A stretch of 64,000 bases of DNA, taken from the NCBI RefSeq assembly GCF_056712565.1, contig NZ_CM160072.1; one strand, given 5' to 3'. Shown here in pieces: positions 1,630-51,276 of this stretch (the stretch's first letter is position 1; the number at the start of each line of letters is the position of its first letter). The notes beneath the pieces were generated by a model. That model made no database searches. It saw only the letters and a program-made list of their open reading frames with translations, and was not told where the DNA came from. The position numbers and the translations under genes were made by a program.

Positions 1630-2949
1630 TCAGTGCAATACGGCGTTAATGGCTAACACGCCCAGCAAACCCATAATAGAAATAAGGGTTTCCATCACCG
1701 TCCAGGTACGCAACGTTTCACCAACCGTCAGATTAAAATACCCTTTAAATAGCCAGAAGCCAGGGTCGTTTACGTGTGACGCGATCACGCTGCCCGCACC
1801 GGTTGCCAGTACCATTAAAGCGGGATCGGCATGGGTAACGTTGATAATCGGCAACACCACACCCGCGGTGGTAATGGCCGCGACGGTGGCAGAGCCCAGA
1901 GCGATACGCAACAGCGCCGCAACAGTCCAGCACATCAATAACGGCGAAAGCGTAGTTCCGGTCATTAAGTGTGAAATATACTGCCCGACACCGCTATCTA
2001 CTAATACCTGCTTAAACGCGCCGCCGCCAGCGATAATAAACACAATCATCGCGATAGCGCCTATAGAATCCCCAATGATATCCATGATTTGCTCGATGGT
2101 GCGTCCATTACGTCGGCCCAGTGTGAAAATCGCAATAACAATGGCAATAAACAGCGCAACGGCAGGGTTACCGACAAATTCAAAGAAGAGGCGCACGGTG
2201 TTAGTTTTCGGTAACGTAATTTCACAAACGGCGGCGATAGCCATCAGGATGACCGGGATCACTGCAGCAAAAATACTGTTCCAGAAGGAGGGCATCTCCT
2301 CTTCGCTAAACAGATGAGGATTAAATAAGCCTTCCGGTGGTGCTTTCTCAAAGCGAGTTAGCAGTTTAGAAAACAGCGGTCCTGCGACAATAACTGTCGG
2401 AATGGTAATGATAAATCCATACAGTAAAGTCGTTCCGAGATTAGCCTCAAAGATAGTCGCGATGGCAGTAGGCCCTGGATGTGGCGGCAGAAAACAGTGG
2501 GTTACAGAGAGCGCTGCTACCATCGGTACGCCAACATACAACAGGGGTAATCCAGATGATGCCACGATGGTAAATACCAACGGCAACAGCAGGACAAAAC
2601 CCACTTCAAAAAACATGGCGAGGCCCACAACCAGACCGGTGATCACTAGCGCCCATTGCACGCGTTTTTTACCAAAAGTAGCAATCAGCGTAGTGGCGAT
2701 ACGTTGTGCCGCGCCCGTATCAGAAATCAGCTTGCCTAACATGGCCCCGAAACCGAGGATCATTGCCAGCCCGCCGAGTGTGCTGCCGATACCATTTTGT
2801 ATAGAGTGCAGGACGGCCTGTGCATCCATCCCTTCGGCAAATCCGACGACGGCAGCGACCAGAACGAGGGCAATAAAGCCGTTAACTTTAAAGCCGATCA
2901 TCAGGATAAGAAGCAGCGCGACGCCTGCCGCAATAATGATTAATGGCAT
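1630..2949 (-). CDS. idnT: GntP-family L-idonate/D-gluconate permease
   Basis: 439-aa polytopic membrane protein (MPLIIIAAGVALLLILMIGF...), GntP-type; synteny in idn cluster. Confidence 0.85.
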   Translation of the reverse strand: MPLIIIAAGVALLLILMIGFKVNGFIALVLVAAVVGFAEGMDAQAVLHSIQNGIGSTLGGLAMILGFGAMLGKLISDTGAAQRIATTLIATFGKKRVQWALVITGLVVGLAMFFEVGFVLLLPLVFTIVASSGLPLLYVGVPMVAALSVTHCFLPPHPGPTAIATIFEANLGTTLLYGFIITIPTVIVAGPLFSKLLTRFEKAPPEGLFNPHLFSEEEMPSFWNSIFAAVIPVILMAIAAVCEITLPKTNTVRLFFEFVGNPAVALFIAIVIAIFTLGRRNGRTIEQIMDIIGDSIGAIAMIVFIIAGGGAFKQVLVDSGVGQYISHLMTGTTLSPLLMCWTVAALLRIALGSATVAAITTAGVVLPIINVTHADPALMVLATGAGSVIASHVNDPGFWLFKGYFNLTVGETLRTWTVMETLISIMGLLGVLAINAVLH

Positions 2950-3013
2950 AGTCTTTATCTCTTATTAGTGCCAGAAAAGCAGCGCTTTCGCGCTGCACGT
3001 AGGGTAGTAGCTG

Positions 3014-3778
3014 TTAAACAGCCACTAACATGCCGCCATCAACAAACAACAGGTGGCCGTTTACGAAATCAGAGGCTTTTGAAGAAAGGAACACCGCAGC
3101 ACCAATCAGTTCCTGCGGATCTCCCCAGCGTGCGGCGGGGGTCCGTTTGCACAACCAGGCGGTGAAGGCTTCGTCCTCAACCAGTGCTTTAGTCATTTCT
3201 GTTTTGAAATAGCCCGGCGCAATACCGTTGACCTGAATATTGTGGCGCGCCAGCTCGACGCACATGCCGCGGGTGAGCATTTTTACCGCCCCTTTCGATG
3301 CGGCATAAGGGGTGATGGTGTCACGTCCCAGTTCGCTTTGCATCGAGCAAATATTAATAACTTTACCTGCCTTGCGTTCAACCATGTGACGAGTTACCGC
3401 TTGCGACACCAGGAACACGGCGGTCTGGTTTACTGCGATCACATCATTCCACTCTTGTTCAGGGAACTCAGTAAAAGGATGACGGCGCTGGATACCGGCG
3501 TTATTCACCAGCACATCAATGGGGCCGATGTCCTTTTCGATATGTTCAACGGCGGCATCAATTTCATGTTTATGAGTAACATTAAAAGGTGCGGCAACGG
3601 CCTGAATACCCTCCTGGTGGAGTTTTTCTACAGCAAGTTCTGCGCGTTCGGCAGTAATATCATTAATAATTATTTGTGCGCCATATTTACCCAGGCCGGT
3701 CGCCAGTAAAAAGCCAATGCCCTGTGCTGAACCGGTAATCAAGATATTTTTTCCTGCCAGTGAAAATAGATCGTTCAT
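3014..3778 (-). CDS. idnO: 5-keto-D-gluconate 5-reductase (short-chain dehydrogenase/reductase)
   Basis: 254 aa; SDR cofactor motif ITGSAQGIG; synteny. Confidence 0.85.
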   Translation of the reverse strand: MNDLFSLAGKNILITGSAQGIGFLLATGLGKYGAQIIINDITAERAELAVEKLHQEGIQAVAAPFNVTHKHEIDAAVEHIEKDIGPIDVLVNNAGIQRRHPFTEFPEQEWNDVIAVNQTAVFLVSQAVTRHMVERKAGKVINICSMQSELGRDTITPYAASKGAVKMLTRGMCVELARHNIQVNGIAPGYFKTEMTKALVEDEAFTAWLCKRTPAARWGDPQELIGAAVFLSSKASDFVNGHLLFVDGGMLVAV

Positions 3779-3801: not shown

Positions 3802-4833
3802 TTAGAAAACAAGCTGGACTTTTGCTGCCTGGGTTTTATCACCGGCGAAACGTAGCGCCTCTTCCAGGTCTGTGAAGGGATATTCAGCACTCAGTAAAGG
3901 CAGTGGATTGATAACGCCATTCGCCAGCCATGACACTGCGGTATTAAATTCGCTGGTAAAACGGAAAGAGCCTTTGAGTGAAATCTCCTTACCAATCAAT
4001 GTCATCATTGGGAATTCTGCCATCGCGCCTCCCATACCTACCTGCACCATTACGCCGCGTGCACGAGTGACCTCCAGACAGGTATTCACTGATGAAGGAT
4101 GACCGGACACTTCAAAGCTGACATCGAAATAGCCTTTTTCCGCTTTCCAGTGATCCATGTCGTCGTTTTGTGGGTTTACGAGCACATCCGCCCCCATCTC
4201 TTTGCCCAGCGAAAGGGAACGGGGACTCACATCGGCACAGACAATTTCCGCGGCCCCCAGTGTTTTCACAGCACTGACAATCAGGCAGCCAATGGGCCCA
4301 ACACCAGAAATAAATACTCGCTTGCCCTGTAACTCGCCGGCCTGATGTGCGGCATGAATCGCGACGGCTAAAGGTTCGGCAAAAGCCATAACCTTTTCGT
4401 CAGCTTTGGCCGGATAAGGGACACATTGCGACGTTTCGACCATTTTATAACGGGTAAAGCCACCATCAACATGAGGGAAATACATGGCACTGCCAAAAAA
4501 ACGCATCTCTGTACACTGATTCTCGTTATGTTCAATGCAGTATTTGCAGTGACCGCACGGTTTAGACGGATTAATGGCTACCGTTTGCCCTTCATGTAAT
4601 TTTGATGAGTCGCTATGAATAACTTTACCGATAACTTCATGACCTAACACCATCGGTGCCTTTATCATGAAATTACCTACTTTTCCTTCCTGATAATAAT
4701 GTAAATCGGAACCGCAAATTCCACCTCGGGTTATTTGTACTAATGTTCCATTATTATTCCAATCTATCGTCTGCTCGGTAACGGCAACAGTTTTCTTGCC
4801 CGCAACAACGCAGGACTGTGTTTTCACTTGCAT
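3802..4833 (-). CDS. idnD: L-idonate 5-dehydrogenase (zinc-dependent medium-chain dehydrogenase)
   Basis: 343 aa; zinc-ADH signature GICGSDLHYY and GxGxxG fold; synteny. Confidence 0.85.
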   Translation of the reverse strand: MQVKTQSCVVAGKKTVAVTEQTIDWNNNGTLVQITRGGICGSDLHYYQEGKVGNFMIKAPMVLGHEVIGKVIHSDSSKLHEGQTVAINPSKPCGHCKYCIEHNENQCTEMRFFGSAMYFPHVDGGFTRYKMVETSQCVPYPAKADEKVMAFAEPLAVAIHAAHQAGELQGKRVFISGVGPIGCLIVSAVKTLGAAEIVCADVSPRSLSLGKEMGADVLVNPQNDDMDHWKAEKGYFDVSFEVSGHPSSVNTCLEVTRARGVMVQVGMGGAMAEFPMMTLIGKEISLKGSFRFTSEFNTAVSWLANGVINPLPLLSAEYPFTDLEEALRFAGDKTQAAKVQLVF

Positions 4834-4932
4834 AAATTCCTCACTGGTCAGGTAGACACCTCGGAAGCATTTAAGCGGTTTTAATTGTCATTATTTGTGA
4901 TGAAGATCACGTTAGAAAATTGTTACATTACT

Positions 4933-4948
4933 ATGTTACGCATAACGT
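4933..4948. promoter_or_regulatory. GntR/IdnR-type operator-like sequence ATGTTACGCATAACGT in the divergent idnD-idnK promoter region
   Basis: Resembles the gnt operator consensus (ATGTTACC..GTAACAT, about 12/16 match) within the 216-bp divergent intergenic region. Confidence 0.35.
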
Positions 4949-5049
4949 GATGTGCCTTGTAATTCTTATCAGCAGAAATAAAAAAACGTGAAATTATTAC
5001 GCCACCAGGCGTAGTATCGCAGCAGGTAAGATGATTCAGGAGATTTTAA

Positions 5050-5613
5050 ATGGCGGGTGAAAGCTTTATTTTGATGGGCGTATCAGGGAGTGGTAAAACA
5101 TTAATTGGTAGCAAGGTTGCCGCGTTATTGTCTGCGAAATTTATTGATGGTGACGATCTTCATCCAGCCAAAAATATAGATAAAATGTCGCAAGGCATTC
5201 CATTATCTGATGAAGATCGACTTCCCTGGCTGGAACGCTTAAATGATGCTTCATACAGTCTTTATAAAAAGAATGAAACAGGATTTATTGTCTGTTCATC
5301 ATTAAAAAAACAGTATCGTGATATTTTACGCAAGGGTAGCCCCCATGTTCATTTCCTCTGGTTAGATGGCGATTATGAAACTATTCTCGCGCGAATGCAG
5401 CGTCGGGCTGGGCATTTTATGCCGGTAGCGTTACTAAAAAGTCAGTTTGAGGCGCTGGAGCGTCCACAAGCAGATGAACAGGATATTGTGCGCATTGATA
5501 TCAACCATGATATTGCCAATGTCACCGAACAATGTCGGCAGGCTGTGCTGGCGATACGACAAAACAGAATATGTGCGAAAGAGGGCAGCGCCTCAGATCA
5601 GCGCTGCGAATGA
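5050..5613 (+). CDS. idnK: Gluconokinase (thermosensitive gluconate kinase)
   Basis: 187 aa; P-loop GVSGSGKT near N-terminus; gluconate kinase family; synteny. Confidence 0.85.
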   Translation: MAGESFILMGVSGSGKTLIGSKVAALLSAKFIDGDDLHPAKNIDKMSQGIPLSDEDRLPWLERLNDASYSLYKKNETGFIVCSSLKKQYRDILRKGSPHVHFLWLDGDYETILARMQRRAGHFMPVALLKSQFEALERPQADEQDIVRIDINHDIANVTEQCRQAVLAIRQNRICAKEGSASDQRCE

Positions 5614-5616
5614 TTT

Positions 5617-6636
5617 TCAAAAATCGGCTTTCAACACCACGCGGTAACGCGCCTTACCGTCGCGCACATGCTGGATGGCGTCGTTAATTTTCGACATCGG
5701 GAACAGTTCGGTAGTCGGCGCAACCTTGCTGCGGGCGGCAAAGCGCATCAGCTTACGCAACTCATAAGGTGTACCGGTAGCAGAGCCAGAGACACTGCGA
5801 TCGCCCGCAATCAGCGTAAAGGCCGGAACCGGCAACGGCGTGAGAACCGCACCGACGGTGTGGAAATTACCGCCATACGTCAGCGCCTCAAAATAAGGCT
5901 GCCAGTCGAGGCTGACGTTCACAGTATTGATAATGAGATCAAACTGCCCCGCCAGAGTTTTCAGTGCCTGCGGATCGCGGCTATTCACCACTTTATCGGC
6001 ACCCATCGCCAGTACTTCCTGCTCTTTCGCCGGATTTGAACTAAAGGCTGTCACCTCGCATCCCATTGCGTGCAGAAGTTTTATAGCGATATGCCCCAGC
6101 CCGCCAATACCAATTACCCCAACGCGGCTGGTAGCAGTGATATGGTGCATCAACAGTGGTTTAAAGACCGTGATACCGCCGCACAACAGCGGCCCGGCGG
6201 ACTCGATATCAATATTTTCTGGCAGTGGAATCACCCATTGCCAGTCCGCACGCAACTTCTCGGCAAAGCCACCGCGATTCATAATCGTCGGCACCGCACC
6301 TTGCTCGCAGTTGATCTGATTACCGCTAATACAGGCGTCGCAGTGACCACAGCTACGCGCCGTCCAGCCAATCCCGACACGCTGACCGACCTGCAAACCT
6401 TTATCCTGCGCGGCGCTCCCGAGTGCCACCACGCGCCCAATCACCTCATGCCCGGCAACCAGCGGATATTGTGAAAATCCCCATTCGTTATCGATCATCG
6501 ACAGATCGGAATGGCAGATCCCGCAGTAATCCACCTGCACTTCAACATCTTGTGGCCTCAGCTCACCGGGATCGTACTCATAAACTTCCAGTTCGCCGCC
6601 CGCTTCTTTTGCGGCATAGCTTTTTATCATCGACAT
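5617..6636 (-). CDS. ahr: NADPH-dependent aldehyde reductase Ahr (YjgB), zinc-ADH family
   Basis: ORF 5617..6678; start set at [14 protein letters not shown] (339 aa); zinc-ADH motif GICHSDL. Confidence 0.8.
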
Positions 6637-6774
6637 TTTTTGGTCCTTCTCTGGTGTTGTTTGGGAAGTGTAGAGCATGGCAGGGCGGGGTGCCTGGAGT
6701 GTGACAAAGGTTACACATCGCTGTATGCAATGCTGAAAATTTCAGCACTTAGCGAGGTGCGAGCAAGCTGGCGC

Positions 6775-6802
6775 TTGCATGGTGGCGTGCGACAGGTATA
6801 AT
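6775..6802 (+). promoter_or_regulatory. Sigma70-type promoter of leuX (-35 TTGCAT, 16-bp spacer, -10 TATAAT)
   Basis: TTGCAT at 6775-6780 and TATAAT at 6797-6802, about 30 bp upstream of the tRNA 5' end. Confidence 0.5.
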
Positions 6803-6831
6803 CCACAACGTTTTCCGCATACCTCTTCAGT

Positions 6832-12515: not shown

Positions 12516-13941
12516 TAATGCCAGTCAGTTAAGCAACTGACTGGCTCTTTTTCGGGGCTGTGGGGTATTTCCAGGGCCTCTCCTTTACCACTCTCGGGAA
12601 GGCCCTTTCCCTTCTTGTCGGTAATTTCACAAGTTGTCCCATACTTGCAAGATCGCGCATCAGCTCCGGTATACGTCCCGGTGAAGCGCCCTGCAATGTT
12701 ATCAGCATTCTCATCACCATTCCGCATGATTCTGAGAAACTCAGTTGATTCGGCCAGTAACCTTTCAGATGTTCCGCCATTTTAATCATCTGATATCTCA
12801 CCAGATTATAAGCCAGTAAGACACCCCACAGCTCTTGCTCCACAAGCTCCGGCTTTTTACTTCTCAGCGTCAGCCTGCTCCGTTGCATCGTCTGTTTTAT
12901 CTCCCTGTATCCCAGTTCGATTTCCCAGCGATGACTGTACAGATCCCCCATTTCTCCTCCGGGGAAGCGCATGGCGTCCGTCATCGACGTCAGCAGATGG
13001 CAGACTTTTCCTTTGCGCGTCACGGTCAGCAGGCGGGCAGTCACTTCATTTCCCAGTCCCGGCCACTTTTTTCGTGCCTGCGGGCTGGTTTTCAGCTTCA
13101 CCAGATGATCGCCTTTACCCAGTTTTCTGATCTCTTCATATTGCGCTCCCTTTCTGAGAGGTATCATCCAGTGGCGGTGTTCTCCCGCCAGGCTCCAGGC
13201 ATTTAACAGTCCCAGTGAGTAATAACCTTTATCCATTAACGTCAGAGTGTTATCGCCGGTTTGTTCTATAAGTTGCTCAGCAAGCTCATTTTCGCTGTTC
13301 TTCATCGTGCCGAAGGCTGCAGCCGTCAGCAGATGGCTGGTCAGTTCCATCTGGCAGACCATTTTGACCTGCGGGTAGAGCGCCGGGTTCCCGGCATGTG
13401 TCTGGCGGGGGAAGGCTGCATCGTTCTCTGGTGTATCCGGTGTGCGCCAGAACACACCATCGATGGCCAGCAGGGTCAGGCCGCACCAGTGCGGATGCGG
13501 CGTGGCGTTATGCCAGAGCTGCGCTGTTTTCGTGAACACGCGGCGGACAGCCTCACTTCCCAGGCGCTGGCGGGCCTGAATAACGGCACTGGGGGCAACG
13601 AAGGGGCGATTGCCCGGCAGCATGATGTCCAGGCGATTCACAATCTGGTGAAGAGGTTCTTTACGCTCAAGCGCCATGCCAACAATACACCAGACCATCA
13701 TTTCGAGGGGAAGACGGCGCTTGCGTAGCGTTACAGTACCTGATTCGGCAAGGCAACGAGAGATGAGTTCGGGGTCGAGGTAATCCCCCAGAGAAGTCAG
13801 TGGGTTACGCAGAGAATCGTAACGGGATACCAGATCAAGAGCCTGTCCAATGTGCATAAAAAAATCCGGAAACAAGTGAGCGTTTCCGGATTCTTACACA
13901 GCCACTGGATCGGTCAACTGATCCTTAACTGATCGGCATTA
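12516..13941 (-). mobile_element. IS4 insertion sequence (1426 bp) with 18-bp terminal inverted repeats
   Basis: Ends TAATGCCAGTCAGTTAAG ... CTTAACTGATCGGCATTA; length 1426 bp; encodes the IS4 transposase. Confidence 0.9.
12529..13857 (-). CDS. insG: IS4 transposase (InsG)
   Basis: ORF 12529..13875; start set at [16 protein letters not shown] (442 aa); DDE transposase. Confidence 0.9.
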
Positions 13942-42274: not shown

Positions 42275-42392
42275 ACAGTCCGCCAGGGAAATGCCTGATA
42301 ACATTACGTTAACCAACTGAAAACATGACACAAACCCCTCATACTCCTCCTGTTTCTCTTGCGTGACCGCCTTGTCGTTAATAGAATAAAAC

Positions 42393-42428
42393 GATCGATA
42401 AAACAGGTATCGATCGTTACTATCGATC
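42393..42428 (+). promoter_or_regulatory. Antigen 43 phase-variation switch: three GATC (Dam) sites, expected to overlap the OxyR site
   Basis: GATC at 42393, 42412 and 42425 (spacing 19 and 13 bp) about 220 bp upstream of the flu start codon. Confidence 0.65.
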
Positions 42429-42645
42429 GTTTATAGTGGTTAATGGTCTGCGAAAAGGCAGCTGAATCTCTTCATCATGCAGAACGGAATTGCACACAAC
42501 GGACTGATACTTCTCTGGCGGATGAGAGAGGGGAAGCATTTATGTCCGGGAAAAACCACTTTATCTGAGCATGCTGTTTTGTACCTGCCGGTATCCACAT
42601 TTGTGGGTACCGGCTTTTTTATTCACCCTCTGTAAGGAAAAGCTG

Positions 42646-45600
42646 ATGAAACGACATCTGAACACCAGCTACAGGCTGGTATGGAATCACATTACGGGCA
42701 CCCTGGTGGTGGCCTCCGAACTGGCCCGCTCACGGGGAAAACGCGCTGGTGTGGCGGTTGCGCTGTCTCTTGCTGCTGTCACATCAGTCCCGGCACTGGC
42801 TGCTGACAAGGTTGTACAGGCGGGAGAAACCGTGAACGACGGAACACTGACAAATCATGACAACCAGATTGTCCTCGGTACGGCCAACGGAATGACCATC
42901 AGTACCGGTCTGGAGTATGGGCCGGATAACGAGGCCAATACCGGCGGACAATGGATACAAAATGGCGGTATCGCCAACAACACTACTGTCACCGGTGGTG
43001 GTCTTCAGAGAGTGAATGCCGGAGGAAGCGTTTCAGACACGGTTATCAGTGCCGGAGGCGGACAGAGCCTTCAGGGGCAGGCAGTGAACACCACTCTGAA
43101 CGGCGGTGAGCAGTGGGTACATGAAGGCGGGATTGCAACGGGTACCGTCATTAATGAGAAGGGCTGGCAGGCCATCAAATCCGGCGCAGTGGCAACCGAC
43201 ACGGTTGTGAATACCGGCGCGGAAGGGGGACCGGATGCGGAAAATGGTGATACCGGGCAGACCGTCTACGGAGATGCCGTACGCACCACCATCAATAAAA
43301 ATGGTCGTCAGATTGTGGCTGCTGAAGGAACGGCAAATACCACTGTGGTTTATGCCGGCGGCGACCAGACTGTACATGGTCACGCACTGGATACCACGCT
43401 GAATGGGGGGTACCAGTATGTGCACAACGGCGGTACGGCGTCTGGCACTGTTGTAAACAGTGACGGCTGGCAGATTGTCAAAAACGGGGGTGTGGCCGGG
43501 AATACCACCGTTAATCAGAAGGGCAGACTGCAGGTGGACGCCGGTGGTACAGCCACGAATGTCACCCTGAAGCAGGGCGGCGCACTGGTTACCAGTACGG
43601 CTGCAACCGTTACCGGCATAAACCGCCTGGGAGCATTCTCTGTTGTGGAGGGTAAAGCTGATAATGTCGTACTGGAAAATGGCGGACGCCTGGATGTGCT
43701 GACCGGACACACAGCCACTAATACCCGCGTGGATGATGGCGGAACGCTGGATGTCCGCAACGGTGGCACCGCCACCACCGTATCCATGGGAAATGGCGGT
43801 GTACTGCTGGCCGATTCCGGTGCCGCTGTCAGTGGTACCCGGAGCGACGGAAAGGCATTCAGTATCGGAGGCGGTCAGGCGGATGCCCTGATGCTGGAAA
43901 AAGGCAGTTCATTCACGCTGAACGCCGGTGATACGGCCACGGATACCACGGTAAATGGCGGACTGTTCACCGCCAGGGGCGGCACACTGGCGGGCACCAC
44001 CACGCTGAATAACGGCGCCATACTTACCCTTTCCGGGAAGACGGTGAACAACGATACCCTGACCATCCGTGAAGGCGATGCACTCCTGCAGGGAGGCTCT
44101 CTCACCGGTAACGGCAGCGTGGAAAAATCAGGAAGTGGCACACTCACTGTCAGCAACACCACACTCACCCAGAAAGCCGTCAACCTGAATGAAGGCACGC
44201 TGACGCTGAACGACAGTACCGTCACCACGGATGTCATTGCTCAGCGCGGTACAGCCCTGAAGCTGACCGGCAGCACTGTGCTGAACGGTGCCATTGACCC
44301 CACGAATGTCACTCTCGCCTCTGGTGCCACCTGGAATATTCCCGATAACGCCACGGTGCAGTCGGTGGTGGATGACCTCAGCCATGCTGGACAGATTCAT
44401 TTCACCTCCACCCGCACAGGGAAGTTCGTACCGGCAACCCTGAAAGTGAAAAACCTGAACGGACAGAATGGCACCATCAGCCTGCGTGTACGCCCGGATA
44501 TGGCACAGAACAATGCTGACAGACTGGTCATTGACGGTGGCAGGGCAACTGGAAAAACCATCCTGAACCTGGTGAACGCCGGCAACAGTGCGTCGGGGCT
44601 GGCGACCAGCGGTAAGGGTATTCAGGTGGTGGAAGCCATTAACGGTGCCACCACGGAGGAAGGGGCCTTTATCCAGGGGAATAAGCTGCAGGCCGGTGCC
44701 TTTAACTACTCCCTCAACCGGGACAGTGATGAGAGCTGGTATCTGCGCAGTGAAAATGCTTATCGTGCTGAAGTCCCCCTGTATACATCCATGCTGACAC
44801 AGGCAATGGACTATGACCGGATTCTGGCAGGCTCCCGCAGCCATCAGACCGGTGTAAACGGTGAAAATAACAGCGTCCGTCTCAGCATTCAGGGCGGTCA
44901 TCTCGGTCACGATAACAACGGCGGTATTGCCCGTGGAGCCACGCCGGAAAGCAGCGGCAGTTATGGCTTCGTCCGTCTGGAGGGTGACCTGCTGAGAACA
45001 GAGGTTGCCGGTATGTCTCTGACGACAGGGGTGTATGGTGCCGCAGGCCATTCTTCCGTTGATGTTAAGGATGATGACGGTTCCCGCGCCGGCACGGTCC
45101 GGGATGATGCCGGCAGTCTGGGCGGATACCTGAATCTGGTACACACGTCCTCCGGCCTGTGGGCTGACATTGTGGCACAGGGAACCCGCCACAGCATGAA
45201 AGCATCATCGGACAATAACGACTTCCGCGCCCGGGGCTGGGGCTGGCTGGGCTCACTGGAAACCGGTCTGCCCTTCAGTATCACTGACAATCTGATGCTG
45301 GAGCCACAACTGCAGTACACCTGGCAGGGACTCTCCCTGGATGACGGCCAGGATAACGCCGGTTATGTGAAGTTCGGGCATGGCAGTGCACAACATGTGC
45401 GTGCCGGCTTCCGTCTGGGCAGCCACAACGATATGAACTTTGGTAAAGGCACCTCATCCCGTGACACCCTGCGCGACAGTGCCAAACACAGTGTGCGTGA
45501 ATTGCCGGTGAACTGGTGGGTACAGCCTTCTGTTATCCGCACTTTCAGCTCCCGGGGTGACATGAGCATGGGTACAGCCGCCGCCGGCAGTAACATGACG

Positions 45601-45765
45601 TTCTCACCGTCCCGGAATGGCACGTCACTGGACCTGCAGGCCGGACTGGAAGCCCGTGTCCGGGAAAATATCACCCTGGGCGTTCAGGCCGGTTATGCCC
45701 ACAGCGTCAGCGGCAGCAGCGCTGAAGGTTATAACGGTCAGGCCACGCTGAATGTGACTTTTTGA
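42646..45765 (+). CDS. flu: Antigen 43 self-associating autotransporter adhesin
   Basis: ORF 42571..45765; start [52 protein letters not shown] (extended autotransporter signal peptide); repetitive Gly/Thr/Asn beta-helix passenger; C-terminal beta-barrel ending …GQATLNVTF. Confidence 0.9.
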
Positions 45766-45788
45766 TAATCAGGTCACTCTCCTTCAGG

Positions 45789-45815
45789 CCCCGGTCATCA
45801 TGACCGGGGCTTTTT
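45789..45815 (+). terminator. Rho-independent terminator of flu
   Basis: Hairpin CCCCGGTCA-TCA-TGACCGGGG followed by CTTTTT. Confidence 0.7.
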
Positions 45816-45835
45816 ACTTTCAGGGAGCAACAGAT

Positions 45836-45994
45836 ATGCCGGGTTGTACATCTCGTTTATTGCCCGAAGGCCCTTTCTCACGCGAACAGGCTGTTGCCGT
45901 CAAAACAGCTTACCGCAATGTGTTTACTGAAGATGACCAGGGAACATATTCCCGGCTGGTTATCCGTAATGCTGAAGGTCAGTTGCGCTGGTGA
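45836..45994 (+). CDS. Small hypothetical protein (52 aa) of CP4-type modules
   Basis: In-frame ATG downstream of the flu terminator within ORF 45800..45994. Confidence 0.35.
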
Positions 45995-46148
45995 TGCCGG
46001 AACACAGCTTAATACTCAGCTCGCCAGTTAAGGGCTTCTCAGACAATAAACGTCATTCATTTCATCTGTCAGGCCGCGTCTTCTCCGGGAGACGTGGCTT
46101 TTTCATTTATTACACCAGTAAATCGTAACCACCGATAAGGAGCAAATT

Positions 46149-46967
46149 ATGCGACTAGCCAGTCGTTTTGGTTATGCGAACCAGATACGCCGTGACCGTC
46201 CGCTGACACACGAAGAACTGATGCACTATGTTCCCAGTATTTTCGGTGAAGACCGGCATACTTCCCGCAGTAAACGATATGCGTACATTCCCACCATCAC
46301 CGTACTGGAAAGCCTGCAGCGGGAAGGCTTTCAGCCATTCTTCGCCTGCCAGACCCGTGTGCGCGACCCGGGCCGCCGGGGATACACAAAACACATGCTG
46401 CGTCTGCGGCGGGCCGGAGAGATAAACGGAGAACATGTCCCTGAAATCATTCTGCTCAACTCCCATGACGGTACCTCCAGCTACCAGATGCTGCCGGGTT
46501 ACTTCAGGTTCGTCTGTCAGAACGGATGCGTCTGTGGTCAGTCTCTGGGGGAAGTGCGTGTTCCGCACCGGGGAAATGTGGTGGACAGATTCATTGAAGG
46601 GGCTTACGAGGTGGTGGGCGTGTTTGACCGGATAGAGGAGAAGCATGATGCCATGCAGTCGCTGGTCCTGTCGCCACCGGCACGCCAGGCGCTGGCACAG
46701 GCGGCACTGACTTACCGTTATGGTGACGAACATCAGCCAGTCACCACCGCTGACATTCTGACACCACGACGCAGGGAGGGTTACGGTCAGGACCTGTGGA
46801 GCGCATATCAGACCATCCAGGAGAATATGCTGAAAGGCGGAATTTCCGGCCGCAGTGCAAAAGGAAAACGTATCCACACCCGTGCCATTCACAACATCGA
46901 CACCGATATTAAGCTCAACCGCGCATTGTGGGTAATGGCAGAAACGCTGCTGGAGAGCCTGCGCTGA
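46149..46967 (+). CDS. DUF932-like protein (YfjQ/YafZ family)
   Basis: 272 aa; size and position after the GTPase/Ag43 genes match YfjQ/YafZ-type proteins (recollection). Confidence 0.6.
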   Translation: MRLASRFGYANQIRRDRPLTHEELMHYVPSIFGEDRHTSRSKRYAYIPTITVLESLQREGFQPFFACQTRVRDPGRRGYTKHMLRLRRAGEINGEHVPEIILLNSHDGTSSYQMLPGYFRFVCQNGCVCGQSLGEVRVPHRGNVVDRFIEGAYEVVGVFDRIEEKHDAMQSLVLSPPARQALAQAALTYRYGDEHQPVTTADILTPRRREGYGQDLWSAYQTIQENMLKGGISGRSAKGKRIHTRAIHNIDTDIKLNRALWVMAETLLESLR

Positions 46968-47308
46968 TGCAGCATGTCCCTGAAAGCGTGATTCAGGCAC
47001 CAGAATCACCCGACGCCCCGGAGGCGCTGCCGGGGTGTCGTTCCATTTCTGATGATGACCTGTGCGCCTGGTGTACCCGTCTGCTTTACCGTCCCGGAGA
47101 AATCAGTCTGTGCAGACTGAGTATACAGGCAATGGCATCTGGCCATCCGTCTGTGACCGGAACGGTTACGCGTACGGCTGTCCGGAATTTCAGCCGAATA
47201 TCATTCATCCCTGATATTACCGGGTCATCACGGTCAGTGATGAACGTGATGTTGCCAGCTCCCGACCTTTACTCCCTCTCATTTATTCACATTACAAGGA
47301 TTTCATAC

Positions 47309-47782
47309 ATGAAAACATTGTCTCAGAACACCACCTCTTCGGCCTGTGCACCGGAGACTGACCTGCAAAAACTGGTAGCCACTCCCGTCCCTGATGAACG
47401 GCGCATCAGCTTCTGGCCGCAGCACTTTGGCCTCATTCCACAGTGGGTGACCCTGGAGCCCCGTATCTTCGGCTGGATGGACCGTCTGTGTGAAGACTAC
47501 TGCGGTGGTATCTGGAATCTGTACACCCTGAACAACGGCGGGGCATTTATGGCACCCGAACCGGATGACGATGATGACGAAACATGGGTACTGTTCAATG
47601 CCATGAACGGTAACCGCGCTGAAATGAGCCCGGAAGCCGCCGGCATTGCTGCCTGTCTGATGACGTACAGTCATCATGCCTGTCGTACGGAGTGTTATGC
47701 CATGACGGTCCATTATTACCGGCTGCGGGATTACGCCCTGCAGCATCCGGAATGCAGCGCCATTATGCGCATCATCGACTGA
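47309..47782 (+). CDS. Antirestriction protein (KlcA/ArdB-like; YfjX/YafX family)
   Basis: 157 aa from MKTLSQNTTSS…; upstream part of the same ORF (46967..47308) may be a separate small gene or an N-terminal extension. Confidence 0.65.
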   Translation: MKTLSQNTTSSACAPETDLQKLVATPVPDERRISFWPQHFGLIPQWVTLEPRIFGWMDRLCEDYCGGIWNLYTLNNGGAFMAPEPDDDDDETWVLFNAMNGNRAEMSPEAAGIAACLMTYSHHACRTECYAMTVHYYRLRDYALQHPECSAIMRIID

Positions 47783-47797
47783 ATGGAGAGAAGTACA

Positions 47798-48274
47798 ATG
47801 CAACAGCTTTCCTTTCTGCCCGGAGAGATGACGCCCGGCGAGCGCAGCCTCATTCAACGGGCCCTGAAAACCCTGGACCGCCATCTTCATGAACCCGGCG
47901 TGGCCTTCACCTCCACCCGTGCGGCACGAGAATGGCTGATTCTGAACATGGCGGGACTGGAGCGTGAAGAGTTCCGGGTGCTGTATCTGAACAACCAGAA
48001 TCAGCTGATTGCCGGTGAAACCCTCTTCACCGGCACCATCAACCGCACGGAAGTCCATCCCCGGGAAGTGATTAAACGCGCCCTGTATCACAATGCCGCT
48101 GCTGTGGTGCTGGCACACAATCACCCGTCCGGTGAAGTCACACCCAGCAAGGCAGACCGCCTTATCACGGAACGTCTGGTACAGGCACTGGGCCTGGTGG
48201 ATATCCGGGTGCCGGACCATCTGATAGTCGGTGGCAGCCAGGTTTTCTCCTTTGCCGAATATGGTCTGCTTTAA
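47798..48274 (+). CDS. RadC-like JAB-domain protein (YeeS/YkfG/YfjY family)
   Basis: JAMM motif HNHPSGEVTPSKAD; ORF 47783..48274. Confidence 0.8.
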   Translation: MQQLSFLPGEMTPGERSLIQRALKTLDRHLHEPGVAFTSTRAAREWLILNMAGLEREEFRVLYLNNQNQLIAGETLFTGTINRTEVHPREVIKRALYHNAAAVVLAHNHPSGEVTPSKADRLITERLVQALGLVDIRVPDHLIVGGSQVFSFAEYGLL

Positions 48275-48336
48275 CCCGTCACAACCACATCACACCTGTT
48301 TTCACTTTTATCTTCTGTCTTCAGAGGTATCCCACT

Positions 48337-48558
48337 ATGAAAATCATCACCCGTGGCGAAGCCATGCGTATTCACCGTCAGCATCCGGCATCCCGTCTTT
48401 TTCCGTTCTGTACCGGCAAATACCGCTGGCACGGCAGTGCTGAAGCGTATACCGGTCGTGAAGTGCAGGATATTCCCGGTGTGCTGGCCGTGTTTGCAGA
48501 ACGCCGTAAGGACAGTTTTGGTCCGTATGTCCGGCTGATGAGCGTCACCCTGAACTGA
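48337..48558 (+). CDS. YeeT-like small protein (DUF987)
   Basis: 73 aa; position between the RadC-like gene and the antitoxin as in CP4-44. Confidence 0.65.
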   Translation: MKIITRGEAMRIHRQHPASRLFPFCTGKYRWHGSAEAYTGREVQDIPGVLAVFAERRKDSFGPYVRLMSVTLN

Positions 48559-48720
48559 TGTTCCGTCACCCGGAAAACGAGTACGACTGGCAGAGCTCAG
48601 ACGCCGCTGTGGATGAGGTCCTGCTCATCAACGAATACACCTTTACCGAAGCCGGTCTGCGCGCCGGCTGACCCGTCATCGTTAAACTATCATTCACCGA
48701 TTTTCTGTGAGGATTTTATC

Positions 48721-49089
48721 GTGTCAGACACACTTTCCGGGACAACGCATCCCGATGACAATGACGACCATCCCTGGTGGGGACTACCCTGCACAGTGAC
48801 GCCCTGTTTCGGCGCCCGTCTGGTGCAGGAGGGTAACCGGTTGCATTACCTTGCCGACCGTGCCGGTATCAGAGGCCGGTTCAGAGATGCGGATGCGTAC
48901 CCTCTGGACCAGGCCTTTCCGCTGCTGATGAAACAACTGAAATTAATGCTCACCAGTGGTGAACTGAATCCCCGCCATCAGCATACCGTGACACTGTATG
49001 CGAAGGGGCTGACCTGTGAAGCCGACACCCTCGGCTCCTGTGGTTACGTTTATCTGGCTGTTTATCCGACACCTGAAACGAAAAAGTAA
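48721..49089 (+). CDS. cbeA: CbeA/YeeU-family antitoxin, GTG start
   Basis: VSDTLSGTTHPDDNDDHPWWGLPCTVTPCFGARLVQEGNRLHYLADRAGIRG…TPETKK, 122 aa, matches the CbeA family along its length. Confidence 0.75.
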   Translation: MSDTLSGTTHPDDNDDHPWWGLPCTVTPCFGARLVQEGNRLHYLADRAGIRGRFRDADAYPLDQAFPLLMKQLKLMLTSGELNPRHQHTVTLYAKGLTCEADTLGSCGYVYLAVYPTPETKK

Positions 49090-49178
49090 ACCACCAGAAT
49101 AACCTTCTGCTCCGGCCTGGTGTTTTCACCACGCCACTGTCCCATTTTTTATCTCTGCATATCAGGAAAATCTTCAGT

Positions 49179-49409
49179 ATGAAAACATTACCCGACACGC
49201 ATGTACGGGAGGTATCGTGCTGCCCGTCTCCAGTCACCATCTGGCAGACACTGCTCACCCGGTTACTGGACCAGCATTCCCTGATTTCCTCATCGATATC
49301 GAATAAGCACTCGTCGCAGAATTCTTTATCGAGTGAGAGCCTCTGTTCAAGGACGCTTCTTTTTTTTGTTGCAACGTGCACATCCCTTCATCTTTCCGCG
49401 CCTTTGTGA
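49179..49409 (+). pseudogene. cbtA: Truncated CbtA/YeeV-family toxin gene (only about the first 33 codons are toxin-like)
   Basis: MKTLPDTHVREVSCCPSPVTIWQTLLTRLLDQH matches the CbtA/YkfI/YpjF N-terminus; from about 49278 the frame reads unrelated low-complexity sequence. Confidence 0.7.
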
Positions 49410-49546
49410 CCTCGTGATTTGGGGTACATGGAAAATGGGCGTAGCAAGCCTCAGCTAGATAACTAACCGTAATAAAAGGGCTTTTCTGCGAGCAATGTAA
49501 GAGAAGGATAACTAGGCAGGTTGCAAGAAAGATAATCGTTTTGATA

Positions 49547-49581
49547 GATCAGTTTATCGATATTGATCGTTAGTGCCGATC
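49547..49581 (+). promoter_or_regulatory. Second GATC triplet resembling the Ag43 Dam/OxyR switch, about 450 bp upstream of mtnK
   Basis: GATC at 49547, 49565, 49578 (spacing 18 and 13 bp versus 19 and 13 in the flu switch); shared GATCGTTA-N5-GATCG core. Confidence 0.35.
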
Positions 49582-49930
49582 GATAAGAAGTGCGGAAACG
49601 TTAGACTCACCTCTGTTGCTCCATCATGATGATGGGGCTGTTGGCCCTCGAATCTATCTGTCTATTAGCATCGGCATGACAAACACCATTTGTTTCCACA
49701 ACAAAAGACAATAGAAAAGTACATATGTACAAAAAGTGTGATTTATTCTGTCACTTCAGTACTTCCTTTCGCCTAAGTTTGCCCGTAATAATTCCCCGTG
49801 CAGTACTATTGTTGCGACATAACAACATGAATTACATGGTAATAATAGATGTTTTCCTCTGCTGATTCCTGTAAGGATCATGACTCCATACGACATCATT
49901 TTTAATTTTATACAGTTCAAAAAATCTACA

Positions 49931-49980
49931 TGTGTCACAAATAATTTTACATTTGATAATGTATAGTTGTCACATGACAA
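49931..49980 (+). promoter_or_regulatory. Operator-like palindromes TGTGTCACA and TTGTCACATGACAA in the mtnK promoter region
   Basis: Two palindromic sites sharing a TGTCACA core, 37-86 bp upstream of the mtnK ATG, near a GATAAT -10-like hexamer. Confidence 0.3.
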
Positions 49981-50016
49981 GTTGATTATCATTCTGTGTA
50001 GACAAGGAGAACTGTT

Positions 50017-51276
50017 ATGACGGATTCAATTCCATCAGGTTACAAGCCGCTGACATGTGACACGCTGCCGGGTTATCTCTCGTCCAGACTGACCCCTTCA
50101 TGCGAACCGGGAGGGTTACCTGAAGAGTGGAAAGTTTCAGAAGTGGGGGACGGAAACCTGAACATGGTGTTTATCGTTGAGGGGACACATAAAACCATCA
50201 TTGTAAAACAAGCTCTGCCCTGGCTTCGTGCCGGGGGCGAAGGATGGCCTTTATCTCTGAGCCGTGCGGGCTTTGAGTACAACGTCTTATGTCAGGAAGC
50301 CAAGTACGCGGGTCACACACTGATTCCGCAGGTCTATTTTTACGACCCGGAAATGGCGCTGTTTGCCATGGAGTATCTGACTCCTCACGTGATTCTGCGT
50401 AAGGAACTGATTAACGGTAAAAAATTCCCTAAACTAGCTGAAGATATCGGCAGATTTTTAGCACAGACTCTCTTCAATACGTCTGACATTGGCATGTCAG
50501 CAGAACAGAAAAAAGCGCTTACTGCCGAGTTCGCGTTGAATCATGAGCTGTGCAAAATTACGGAAGATCTGATCTTCACAGAGCCCTATTACAACGCTGA
50601 ACGGAATAACTGGACTTCTCCTGAGCTGGACGATGCCGTCCATAAGGCCTGGGCTGATGTAGAGATGATCCAGGTTGCCATGCGTTATAAGTACAAATTT
50701 ATGACAGAAGCGCAGGCATTGTTACATGGCGACCTTCATTCAGGCTCAATCATGGTGACCGACACGGATACCAAAGTGATTGATCCGGAGTTCGGTTTCA
50801 TGGGGCCAATGGCGTTTGATATCGGCAACTATATTGGCAACCTCCTGCTGGCGTACTTCTCACGCCCTGGGTGGGATGCGAATGAGCAACGTCGCGCTGA
50901 CTATCAGGAATGGCTGCTTCAGCAGATTGTCCAAACCTGGTCCGTTTTCACCCGGGAGTTCCGCCAGCTCTGGGACAACAAAACACAGGGCGACGCGTGG
51001 TCGACAGAAATGTATCAACAGAACAGGGCCGCTCTTGAGGACGCACAGGATCAGTTTTTTGCCACGCTGCTTGAAGATTCCCTGGTGAATGCCGGCATGG
51101 AAATGAATCGCCGGATCATTGGTTTTGCTGGCGTTGCCGAGCTGAAACAGATTGAAAATACAGAGCTTCGCGCAGGATGTGAACGACGTGCATTGACCAT
51201 GGCGCGCGATCTTATCGTCAATGCCCGCCAGTTTAAAAATATGGATTCCGTCATCCAGTCTGCGAAGGTTAAGTAA
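50017..51276 (+). CDS. mtnK: 5-methylthioribose kinase-like kinase
   Basis: 419 aa; phosphotransferase fold with HGDLHSGSIMV catalytic motif; first gene of a four-gene co-directional cluster. Confidence 0.8.
   Translation: MTDSIPSGYKPLTCDTLPGYLSSRLTPSCEPGGLPEEWKVSEVGDGNLNMVFIVEGTHKTIIVKQALPWLRAGGEGWPLSLSRAGFEYNVLCQEAKYAGHTLIPQVYFYDPEMALFAMEYLTPHVILRKELINGKKFPKLAEDIGRFLAQTLFNTSDIGMSAEQKKALTAEFALNHELCKITEDLIFTEPYYNAERNNWTSPELDDAVHKAWADVEMIQVAMRYKYKFMTEAQALLHGDLHSGSIMVTDTDTKVIDPEFGFMGPMAFDIGNYIGNLLLAYFSRPGWDANEQRRADYQEWLLQQIVQTWSVFTREFRQLWDNKTQGDAWSTEMYQQNRAALEDAQDQFFATLLEDSLVNAGMEMNRRIIGFAGVAELKQIENTELRAGCERRALTMARDLIVNARQFKNMDSVIQSAKVK

Follow-up and report, generated by a model that had tools for sequence, protein, structure and literature searches.

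To our knowledge, experimentally established Dam/OxyR switches are few, namely agn43, mom of phage Mu, gtr and opvAB, and mom and agn43 are the two single-tetramer, three-GATC sites that we know of, both of them repressive. According to citations in PMC2909390 and PMC10742451, Mu mom is an established target of both OxyR ('MomR') and Dam. Three Dam sites precede its promoter, Pmom. Its GATC sites are spaced exactly 18 and 13 bp apart, and its two half-sites (ATAGAAAACGACGAT and ATCGGTAATACAGAT) are separated by 16 nt and score 14/20 against the OxyR consensus. The site is estimated from the Mu sequence to lie at roughly −45 to −85, with the GATC pair proximal to the promoter, and mom additionally requires the phage C activator. 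The agn43 system is represented in the DNA analysed here (a stretch of 64,000 nucleotides, referred to as the window) by the leader of flu, in which a single OxyR tetramer site at 42381–42427 contains three GATCs (42393, 42412 and 42425; 19/13 spacing). Half-site 1 of agn43 (ATAGAATAAAACGAT) overlaps the −10 element TAGAAT, which lies 5 nt before GATC1, the site as a whole is located at the start and beyond it, and the IsrC annotation in flu begins at GATC1.

The remaining systems are built from more elements. The P22 gtr half-sites bind OxyR unless they are methylated, and OxyR blocks Dam (PMC2909390); the OxyR sites are also tabulated in PMC7708049 (Table 2). In P22 and Salmonella gtr, four GATCs are arranged in two pairs, with three half-sites 17 nt apart and two OxyR positions, one activating and one repressing, and the switch governs a horizontally acquired, surface-modifying glycosyltransferase operon (gtrABC). 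Salmonella opvAB is also a horizontally acquired, envelope-modifying locus under Dam/OxyR control (PMC4856963, PMC7708049), with four OxyR sites and four GATCs in alternating occupancy and with no 13-bp GATC pair within one half-site. Pap-type Dam/Lrp switches consist of two GATC boxes 102 bp apart together with a papI-like gene (PMC2909390).

The window covers a tRNA-leuX island with a CP4-type module (yfjI, a GTPase gene, agn43, antirestriction, radC, DUF987, cbeA and a truncated cbtA, cbtA'). The annotation is based on RefSeq NZ_CP033850 (E. coli FDAARGOS_497), which is 100% identical over the 1.4 kb compared. Between the 33-codon cbtA remnant and mtnK (50017) are 740 bp of unannotated DNA, which contain a triplet of GATC sites in the following setting.

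49179–49277, + strand: truncated cbtA toxin gene of 33 codons (RefSeq annotation), on the left side of a deletion junction.
49277–49391, − strand: remnant of a 55-codon CxxC...CxxC gene, frameshifted, with its 3' end lost at about 49277 and fused to cbtA'.
49508–49536, − strand: candidate weak leftward promoter, with a −35-like ATTATC (49536–49531) and a −10-like AGTTAT (49513–49508), placed by analogy with phi80.
49535–49549, + strand: putative OxyR half-site 1, ATCGTTTTGATAGAT, matching ATAGnTnnnAnCTAT at 7/10 positions and ending in the GAT of GATC1.
49547–49550, unstranded: GATC1, a Dam target (from the sequence).
49565–49568, unstranded: GATC2, a Dam target 18 bp after GATC1.
49566–49580, + strand: putative OxyR half-site 2, ATCGTTAGTGCCGAT, matching at 7/10 positions and bounded by the GATC pair 13 bp apart.
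49578–49581, unstranded: GATC3, a Dam target 13 bp after GATC2.
49635–50016, + strand: native upstream region of mtnK, a module separate from the switch, delimited by the alignment limits of two other mtn clusters (H60 and H59).

A preliminary description of this DNA had compared the 18/13 spacing of the triplet with the 19/13 spacing in flu and had pointed out a shared GATCGTTA-N5-GATCG core. The positions and spacings are borne out by the sequence, and the core is present in both regions, at 42412–42429 in flu (GATCGTTACTATCGATCG) and at 49565–49582 in the 18/13 site (GATCGTTAGTGCCGATCG). The closer counterpart is Mu mom, which has the same 18/13 spacing, the same spacer and the same GATC register. 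Three GATCs fall within ~35–47 bp, and the pair 13 bp apart bounds one half-site, as it does in agn43. The register of half-site 1, with GATC1 within it, equals that of both agn43 half-site 1 and Mu mom half-site 1, whereas agn43 differs in its 19/13 spacing, in a spacer that is one base longer (17 nt) and in the location of its site at and beyond the start, that of the window being upstream of its presumed promoter. The form of half-site 2, ATTGATCG-N7-CGATC, recurs in P22 gtr half-sites A and C (ATTGATCG-N7-CGATCAA, with GATCs 13 bp apart), which match the GATC2–GATC3 unit of the wider family described below. Unlike gtr, the window site has one GATC pair plus one single GATC, a single tetramer position and no third half-site. 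Nor does it resemble a pap-type switch, since one must go 7.1 kb leftward or 295 bp rightward to reach another GATC. Mu mom and the window site are both carried on a mobile element but share no homology outside the operator, and the operon that the window site would have served is dead.

The consensus score and the clustering of GATCs are by themselves poor guides. Scored against ATAGnTnnnAnCTAT taken twice, the window site reaches 7 + 7 = 14/20 with a 16-nt spacer, the best such site in the window and equal to Mu mom, while flu reaches 16/20 with a 17-nt spacer. In dinucleotide shuffles of the window, however, sites scoring at least 14/20 occur about once per spacer length per 64 kb (about two for the 16- and 17-nt spacers together), and the score, which the preliminary description had put forward as a check, is therefore not significant alone. 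Scoring with a 7-nt spacer gives an unremarkable 12/20. GATC triplets within 36 bp form four clusters in the window against ~1.5 expected, so that clustering alone is also unremarkable, and no OxyR-like operator architecture was seen at the two further clusters (6493/6504/6517, spanning 6493–6520, and 13908/13920/13931, spanning 13908–13934). The excess over chance lies in the particular layout of the site and in how well it is conserved, not in GATC clustering itself. The flu and 18/13 triplets flank a 7.1-kb stretch that is free of GATC, in which ~27 would be expected. An Rfam scan of 49100–50100 gave no match, and the DNA fold of the site is unremarkable (z = −0.8).

The gene associated with the triplet lies to its left. 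The three GATCs are 156–190 bp upstream of the start of the minus-strand, 55-codon CxxC gene (ATG at 49391). A protein search found 32 homologues of the CxxC mini-protein, in Enterobacteriaceae. An intact GT2 gene of 311–329 aa comes after the mini-gene in Lelliottia, Klebsiella aerogenes, K. michiganensis, Kluyvera, Yokenella and metagenomic contigs, often with a third small gene after it; a downstream GT2 of this length was counted in six loci. The best NCBIfam match of the GT2 is PRK10073, at a score under that model's cutoff. In several loci, including those of Yokenella and metagenomes, the operon and an intact cbtA are transcribed toward each other where a CP4-type island ends. The CxxC/GT2 operon, with its WaaH/YibD-like GT2, probably serves to modify surface glycans and is carried at the cbtA end of CP4-type islands; it is comparable in this respect to the gtr and opvAB loci, although its cargo is a CxxC mini-protein and a GT2 instead of gtrABC.

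The triplet is retained upstream of this operon across genera. Among the orthologous loci collected by the mini-protein search, the triplet is found in Lelliottia, K. aerogenes, K. michiganensis, Yokenella, Citrobacter and metagenomes, and nine of ten loci keep it at −190/−177/−159 (within 4 bp) from the ATG. Read toward the gene, a 13-bp interval is followed by one of 18 bp, or of 19 bp in Citrobacter; in Kluyvera none of the three GATCs is left. The flanking DNA falls into two lineages that can no longer be aligned, and the triplet is kept nonetheless. The small CxxC gene is downstream each time, and no autotransporter gene was found there. Conservation within E. coli is of a different kind: of 5426 complete E. 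coli genomes, 1076 have a match to the stretch 49290–50010, with few exceptions a single one, and 1042 of the 1076 match at 99% identity or more; the 340-bp piece that carries the triplet is single-copy in the species. This reflects recent common descent and is uninformative on function.

In the strain analysed here the operon has decayed. The minus-strand ORF from 49391 begins MKGCARCNKKKK and, after a shift of frame, runs through RSVLEQRLSLDKEFCDECLFDIDEEIRE to the junction at ~49277. The frameshift is due to an extra base in the homopolymer at 49360–49367 (T8 on the + strand versus T7 in EC958); EC958, in which the intact homologue is MKRCARCNKKRSVLEQRLSLDKEFCDECLFDIDEEIRERRIITIRRLKDDNERKS, and Nissle 1917 both have a run one base shorter and an intact 55-codon CxxC gene, followed 7 bp on by the GT2 gene. 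A deletion has joined codon 33 of cbtA to the 3' end of the CxxC mini-gene in the window, since other loci have an intact mini-gene/GT2 operon convergent with intact cbtA. Full-length GT2 operon DNA is present in 435 E. coli genomes; the one copy checked, that of Nissle 1917, is full length in DNA but a pseudogene, with four in-frame stops and a frameshift. With its CxxC gene frameshifted and truncated and the GT2 gene gone, the operator in the window is an orphan without intact output.

The same geometry recurs on mobile elements that are otherwise unrelated. A BLAST search with a 362-bp piece gave no match in phages and, in plasmids, a hit over a 48-bp core only. A short query against plasmids recovered this core, its spacing unchanged, in three settings: on an ICE of Enterobacter ludwigii, ~200 bp ahead of a csrA-like gene, ~70 bp upstream of cor on Rahnella and Enterobacter phage-plasmids, and upstream of the gene for an 84-aa secreted protein on a Klebsiella plasmid. 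The motif of this family can be written AATTGnTTnnnTAGATCAAT-N8-ATTGATCG-N7-CGATC. A search of IMG/VR with the exact pattern TAGATCA-N11-TTGATCG-N8-GATC (18/13 spacing) found at least 120 contigs, against four when the first spacing was lengthened by one base (19) and six when it was shortened by one (17). Among the matches listed, ~88 sites are located between a 224-aa tail-region gene and cor (phrog_1119), at ~69 bp from the cor start, ~14 are in P2-like prophages between the terminator of a tail-fibre assembly gene and the tail-sheath gene FI, and the remainder precede other small lipoprotein or membrane genes.

In a sample free of motif bias, consisting of 80 loci collected by Cor protein homology, a 13/18 triplet is present at −109/−96/−78 in 68 (85%), corresponding to 40 of 46 distinct upstream sequences. 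The remaining loci have point-mutated or deleted copies; HK022, for example, keeps one GATC. Many cor phages also have a perfect TATAAT 10 nt before GATC1 on the strand opposite to cor, an arrangement that echoes agn43. A scan of species-representative genomes used a 19-bp GATC1–GATC2 spacing and samples the 19/13 variant only; it gave 41 sites against ~9 expected, of which ~25 are intergenic in Enterobacterales and Orbales and several are upstream of RfaH-like antiterminator paralogues. Versions with 18 bp and with 19 bp therefore both exist.

The orientation of the element relative to its neighbour varies within the family. In Mu mom the GATC pair is proximal to the promoter, whereas at the small-ORF and cor genes the half-site with the single GATC is proximal, so that the arrangement is flipped; the same is true of the window site relative to its conserved leftward gene. 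In the P2-like subgroup the element faces FI as the Mu site faces mom, and a leftward gene is often missing; a leftward target is therefore not universal. The P2-like intergenic region had no match among deposited phage genomes, and its late promoter could not be placed.

A conservation profile was compiled from 27 non-redundant family members that are less than 80% identical to one another. Among positions that are not forced by the search pattern, positions 1, 2, 4 and 6 of half-site 1 (A, T, G and T) vary little or not at all, and positions 6, 10 and 12 of half-site 2 (T, A and C) are conserved; all seven agree with the OxyR consensus. Half-site 1 of the Citrobacter/Yokenella lineage matches at 5/10 positions and lacks the otherwise invariant G. 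The triplet can thus be said to have the anatomy of a Dam/OxyR operator, and OxyR is the likely binder on the grounds of geometry, conservation and likeness to proven sites, not of score.

The promoter can be placed by analogy only with phi80, the cor gene of which carries the 18/13 operator geometry. In the phi80 record (FN582354) the depositors marked a cor promoter with −35 ATTATA and an extended −10 (TGGTATTGT), together with its start site. Counted from that start, the GATCs fall at −83, −70 and −52, and half-site 1 adjoins the −35 element. The cor-branch site is hence placed from the start much as the Mu mom site is. In the window, the positions of ATTATC and AGTTAT relative to GATC1 match those of the phi80 cor −35 and −10 elements, suggesting a weak leftward promoter; a simple promoter and terminator scan at the site detected no σ70 promoter on either strand and no terminator.

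We consider it probable (about 0.65) that the triplet is a Dam-methylation/OxyR-type switch operator, of the Mu mom/agn43 class, belonging to the leftward operon and orphaned in this strain. The two OxyR-like half-sites, 16 nt apart, would be enough for one OxyR tetramer. OxyR sitting on unmethylated DNA would keep Dam away and silence the neighbouring promoter, giving an OFF state in which the GATCs are protected, whereas OxyR could not bind once the site is fully methylated and the promoter would stay ON, each state being heritable. The output would be the minus-strand operon from 49391, that is, the CxxC gene and, in other genera, the GT2 gene after it. The sequence anatomy of the site, its conservation, its association with the CxxC gene and the decay of that gene are shown directly by the comparisons above; OxyR binding, bistability and the direction of regulation are what we infer for it, and the OxyR-bound state is assigned as OFF because mom and agn43 are both repressive.

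The preliminary description had recognized a switch-type arrangement at 49547–49578 and had offered two origins or roles for it, a relic of another agn43-type leader or a switch for the mtn genes. The arrangement holds up as Dam/OxyR operator anatomy, with the geometry of Mu mom, but neither of the two proposals fits the wider evidence. Descent from a second agn43-type leader that has lost its autotransporter gene would account for the shared core, for the occurrence of GATCGATAAG after GATC3 in K-12 flu as well and for the presence of both sites on the same island. The alignment of 49495–49635 with the flu leader that had been suggested as a check, made on both strands, nevertheless finds nothing in common outside the 35-bp core; the window site has neither the −10 element over half-site 1 nor an IsrC-type leader, its spacer is shorter by one base, and the orthologues precede the CxxC gene and GT2, never an autotransporter. 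This origin is very improbable. A rightward action that would make mtnK-mtnA-ald2 (the DHAP shunt) phase-variable is distinctly unlikely as well. Its appeal is that the 18-then-13 order on the + strand faces mtnK, as in Mu mom and the P2-like FI sites, and that the triplet adjoins mtnK in most of the 1076 matching E. coli genomes. Exceptions, however, keep only the mtnK-proximal part: the alignment of a divergent mtn cluster (H60, 82.7% identity, strain UMB200201_11) begins only at ~49630–49635 and extends rightward, that of an IS-interrupted copy (H59) begins at the same place (query position ~341–346), and H60 retains 380 bp upstream of mtnK without the triplet. Because a divergent mtn cluster exists without the triplet, the boundary of homology at ~49635 separates two modules, and the left module (49277 to ~49635) is not part of the mtnK upstream region. 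In addition, GATC3 is 436 bp from the mtnK ATG, whereas the corresponding distance is ~75 bp in Mu and ~130 bp in P2-like phages. The simple promoter scan gave mtnK promoter-like sites of its own at 49916–49960 and found no + strand promoter upstream of GATC1, and none of the triplets in the loci of five other genera is beside mtn genes.

Two further readings concern whether the site is functional and what binds it. That the triplet is a chance cluster of GATCs could be argued from the four clusters in the window and from the frequency of 14/20 scores in shuffled sequence, but the comparative data already contradict it: the triplet is kept across genera at a fixed distance from one gene, the family is specific in spacing (at least 120 versus four and six), and 85% of cor loci chosen by protein homology keep it, so that chance is scarcely credible. 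A real, conserved operator bound by a protein other than OxyR, such as Fur, another LysR-type factor (for example HdfR) or SeqA, is unlikely. The OxyR consensus scores are modest (12–14/20), and the conserved AAT after GATC1 and the A before TTGATCG are unexplained by the OxyR consensus. For Fur in particular, box 0 and GATC1 form TGAT-N7-ATCA, the outer arms of a Fur 7-1-7 box, and since Cor blocks the Fur-regulated receptor FhuA (FN582354 annotation), iron control would be biologically sensible; putative Fur sites have also been reported beside gtr and opvAB (PMC7708049). Against this, the profile of the 27 members, as we read it, shows no conservation of the inner bases in the 7-1-7 box, the geometry is identical to that of Mu mom, where OxyR is proven to act, the GATC pair hardly differs from the proven gtr half-sites, and the unforced conserved positions all fit OxyR. 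The occurrence of the element on unrelated mobile elements calls for a universal host factor.

A literature search found nothing specific on methylation, OxyR or expression for the locus, for cor or for related morons, and the EC958 methylome paper and its supplements list no individual unmethylated sites. No paper was found on the site, on the mini-gene/GT2 operon or on Dam/OxyR control of cor; the literature coverage is incomplete, so that this absence is no proof of novelty.

Little follows for the genome itself: a fossil operator beside a dead operon is the likeliest reading of the site, which should not be taken as evidence for phase-variable methylthioribose/DHAP-shunt metabolism. The family-level pattern is a more interesting lead than this single site, as the same operator geometry is common on prophages, ICEs, plasmids and islands. 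The cargo seen comprises the FhuA-blocking exclusion lipoprotein Cor of phi80-like prophages, other small envelope proteins, a csrA-like gene on an ICE, RfaH-like antiterminators (in the 19/13 variant), the slot beside the P2-like tail-sheath gene and the CxxC/GT2 operon of CP4-type islands. We tentatively suggest, at somewhat less than even odds, that the 18/13 operator is a portable epigenetic switch cassette that mobile elements of Enterobacterales put on cargo genes. In that case host Dam and OxyR would make superinfection exclusion, among other traits of lysogenic conversion, phase-variable, and natural locked variants such as HK022 would be decayed switches. The orphan copy in the window would go on alternating between a methylated and an OxyR-bound state, and a variable antisense transcript might run from it into cbtA'-cbeA. 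Exclusion of FhuA-dependent phages by Cor, and the functions of other prophage cargo, would then be heterogeneous within clonal lysogens, a prediction for which phi80 and HK022 provide a natural pair of intact and decayed operators.

Between the two OxyR-type GATC triplets of the window, that of the flu (agn43) regulatory region and the putative Dam/OxyR-type operator at 49547/49565/49578 (the 18/13 element, after its GATC spacing), lies a 7.1 kb stretch (42429-49546) with no GATC at all, against approximately 27 expected from base composition. Its two ends coincide exactly with the triplets, and it spans agn43, DUF905, DUF932, antirestriction, radC-like and DUF987 genes, cbeA and cbtA'. K-12 likewise lacks GATC in the coding sequence of flu and across yeeS-yeeW, but has it in yeeR. 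The flu OxyR site (42381-42427) is the top-scoring site and the only one in the window to reach 16/20, with a spacer of 17 nt between half-sites; its half-site 1, ATAGAATAAAACGAT, overlies the −10 hexamer TAGAAT. OxyR-like half-sites are absent from both of the further three-GATC clusters in the window, of which one is in unannotated DNA adjoining IS4 and the other within a BCCT transporter gene:

6493-6520, spacing 11/13
13908-13934, spacing 12/11

To the left of the 18/13 element lies an unannotated mini-gene, for which no Pfam or NCBIfam family was found:

49277-49391, minus strand (2934-3101 at the EC958 locus), 55-codon CxxC...CxxC mini-gene

It is kept across the Enterobacteriaceae (32 homologues), in every case as the first gene of an operon with a GT2 glycosyltransferase. 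Two lesions have inactivated the window copy: an additional base within an A7/A8 run, and a truncation. In E. coli Nissle 1917 the GT2 gene 3′ of the mini-gene (4379-5320 of locus L204) is full length as DNA, yet carries four in-frame stops and a frameshift, and the RefSeq annotation there is limited to a 'glycosyltransferase family 2 protein' of 84 aa. The operon appears to be in decay across E. coli generally. An orthologous mini-gene/GT2 locus in Kluyvera (L197, 2240-2500) has no GATC upstream; its aligned stretch reads GACCGATTTTATCGATT.

The top promoter-like match of the intergenic region, GTGACA-18-TAAAAT (10/12; 49944-49973, minus strand), sits within the conserved mtnK upstream module and faces left, away from mtnK.

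The 18/13 element also occurs in P2-like prophages, at 6640-6831 of IMG/VR locus L069 and, among the matches listed, at about 13 other IMG/VR loci. There it is flanked on one side by the terminator that follows the tail-fibre assembly gene and on the other by FI, the tail-sheath gene; its GATC pair points to FI, which is the same orientation as in Mu mom. Small leftward ORFs accompany some copies and are lacking beside others, and the spacer carrying the element found no match among deposited phage genomes. A 19/13 version with conserved flanks, spaced as in flu, precedes RfaH/NusG-like antiterminator paralogues (phrog_6386) at a distance of 110-147 bp:

L164, L181, L182, L183, L187: Pantoea, Erwinia, an Enterobacteriaceae MAG, Xenorhabdus, Pectobacterium

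In Gilliamella genomes, a gene for a 127-aa membrane protein is preceded by a related site whose spacer contains a fourth GATC.

In many phages with the exclusion gene cor, a perfect TATAAT lies 10 nt before GATC1, the single GATC of half-site 1, on the strand opposite cor (e.g. 3000-3012 of locus L007), overlapping the annotated −35 of cor; its counterpart in the window is GATAAT (49531-49536). This hexamer mimics the agn43 layout of a −10 followed by GATC1 and could represent an antisense or divergent promoter. Among cor loci collected through protein homology, 85% retain the triplet intact. All three GATCs are present upstream of cor in phi80 (406-440 of L134), whereas in HK022 (L202) the first is deleted and the third is lost through a G-to-T change. 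The cor loci are therefore a source of natural intact/decayed pairs, such as phi80 and HK022.
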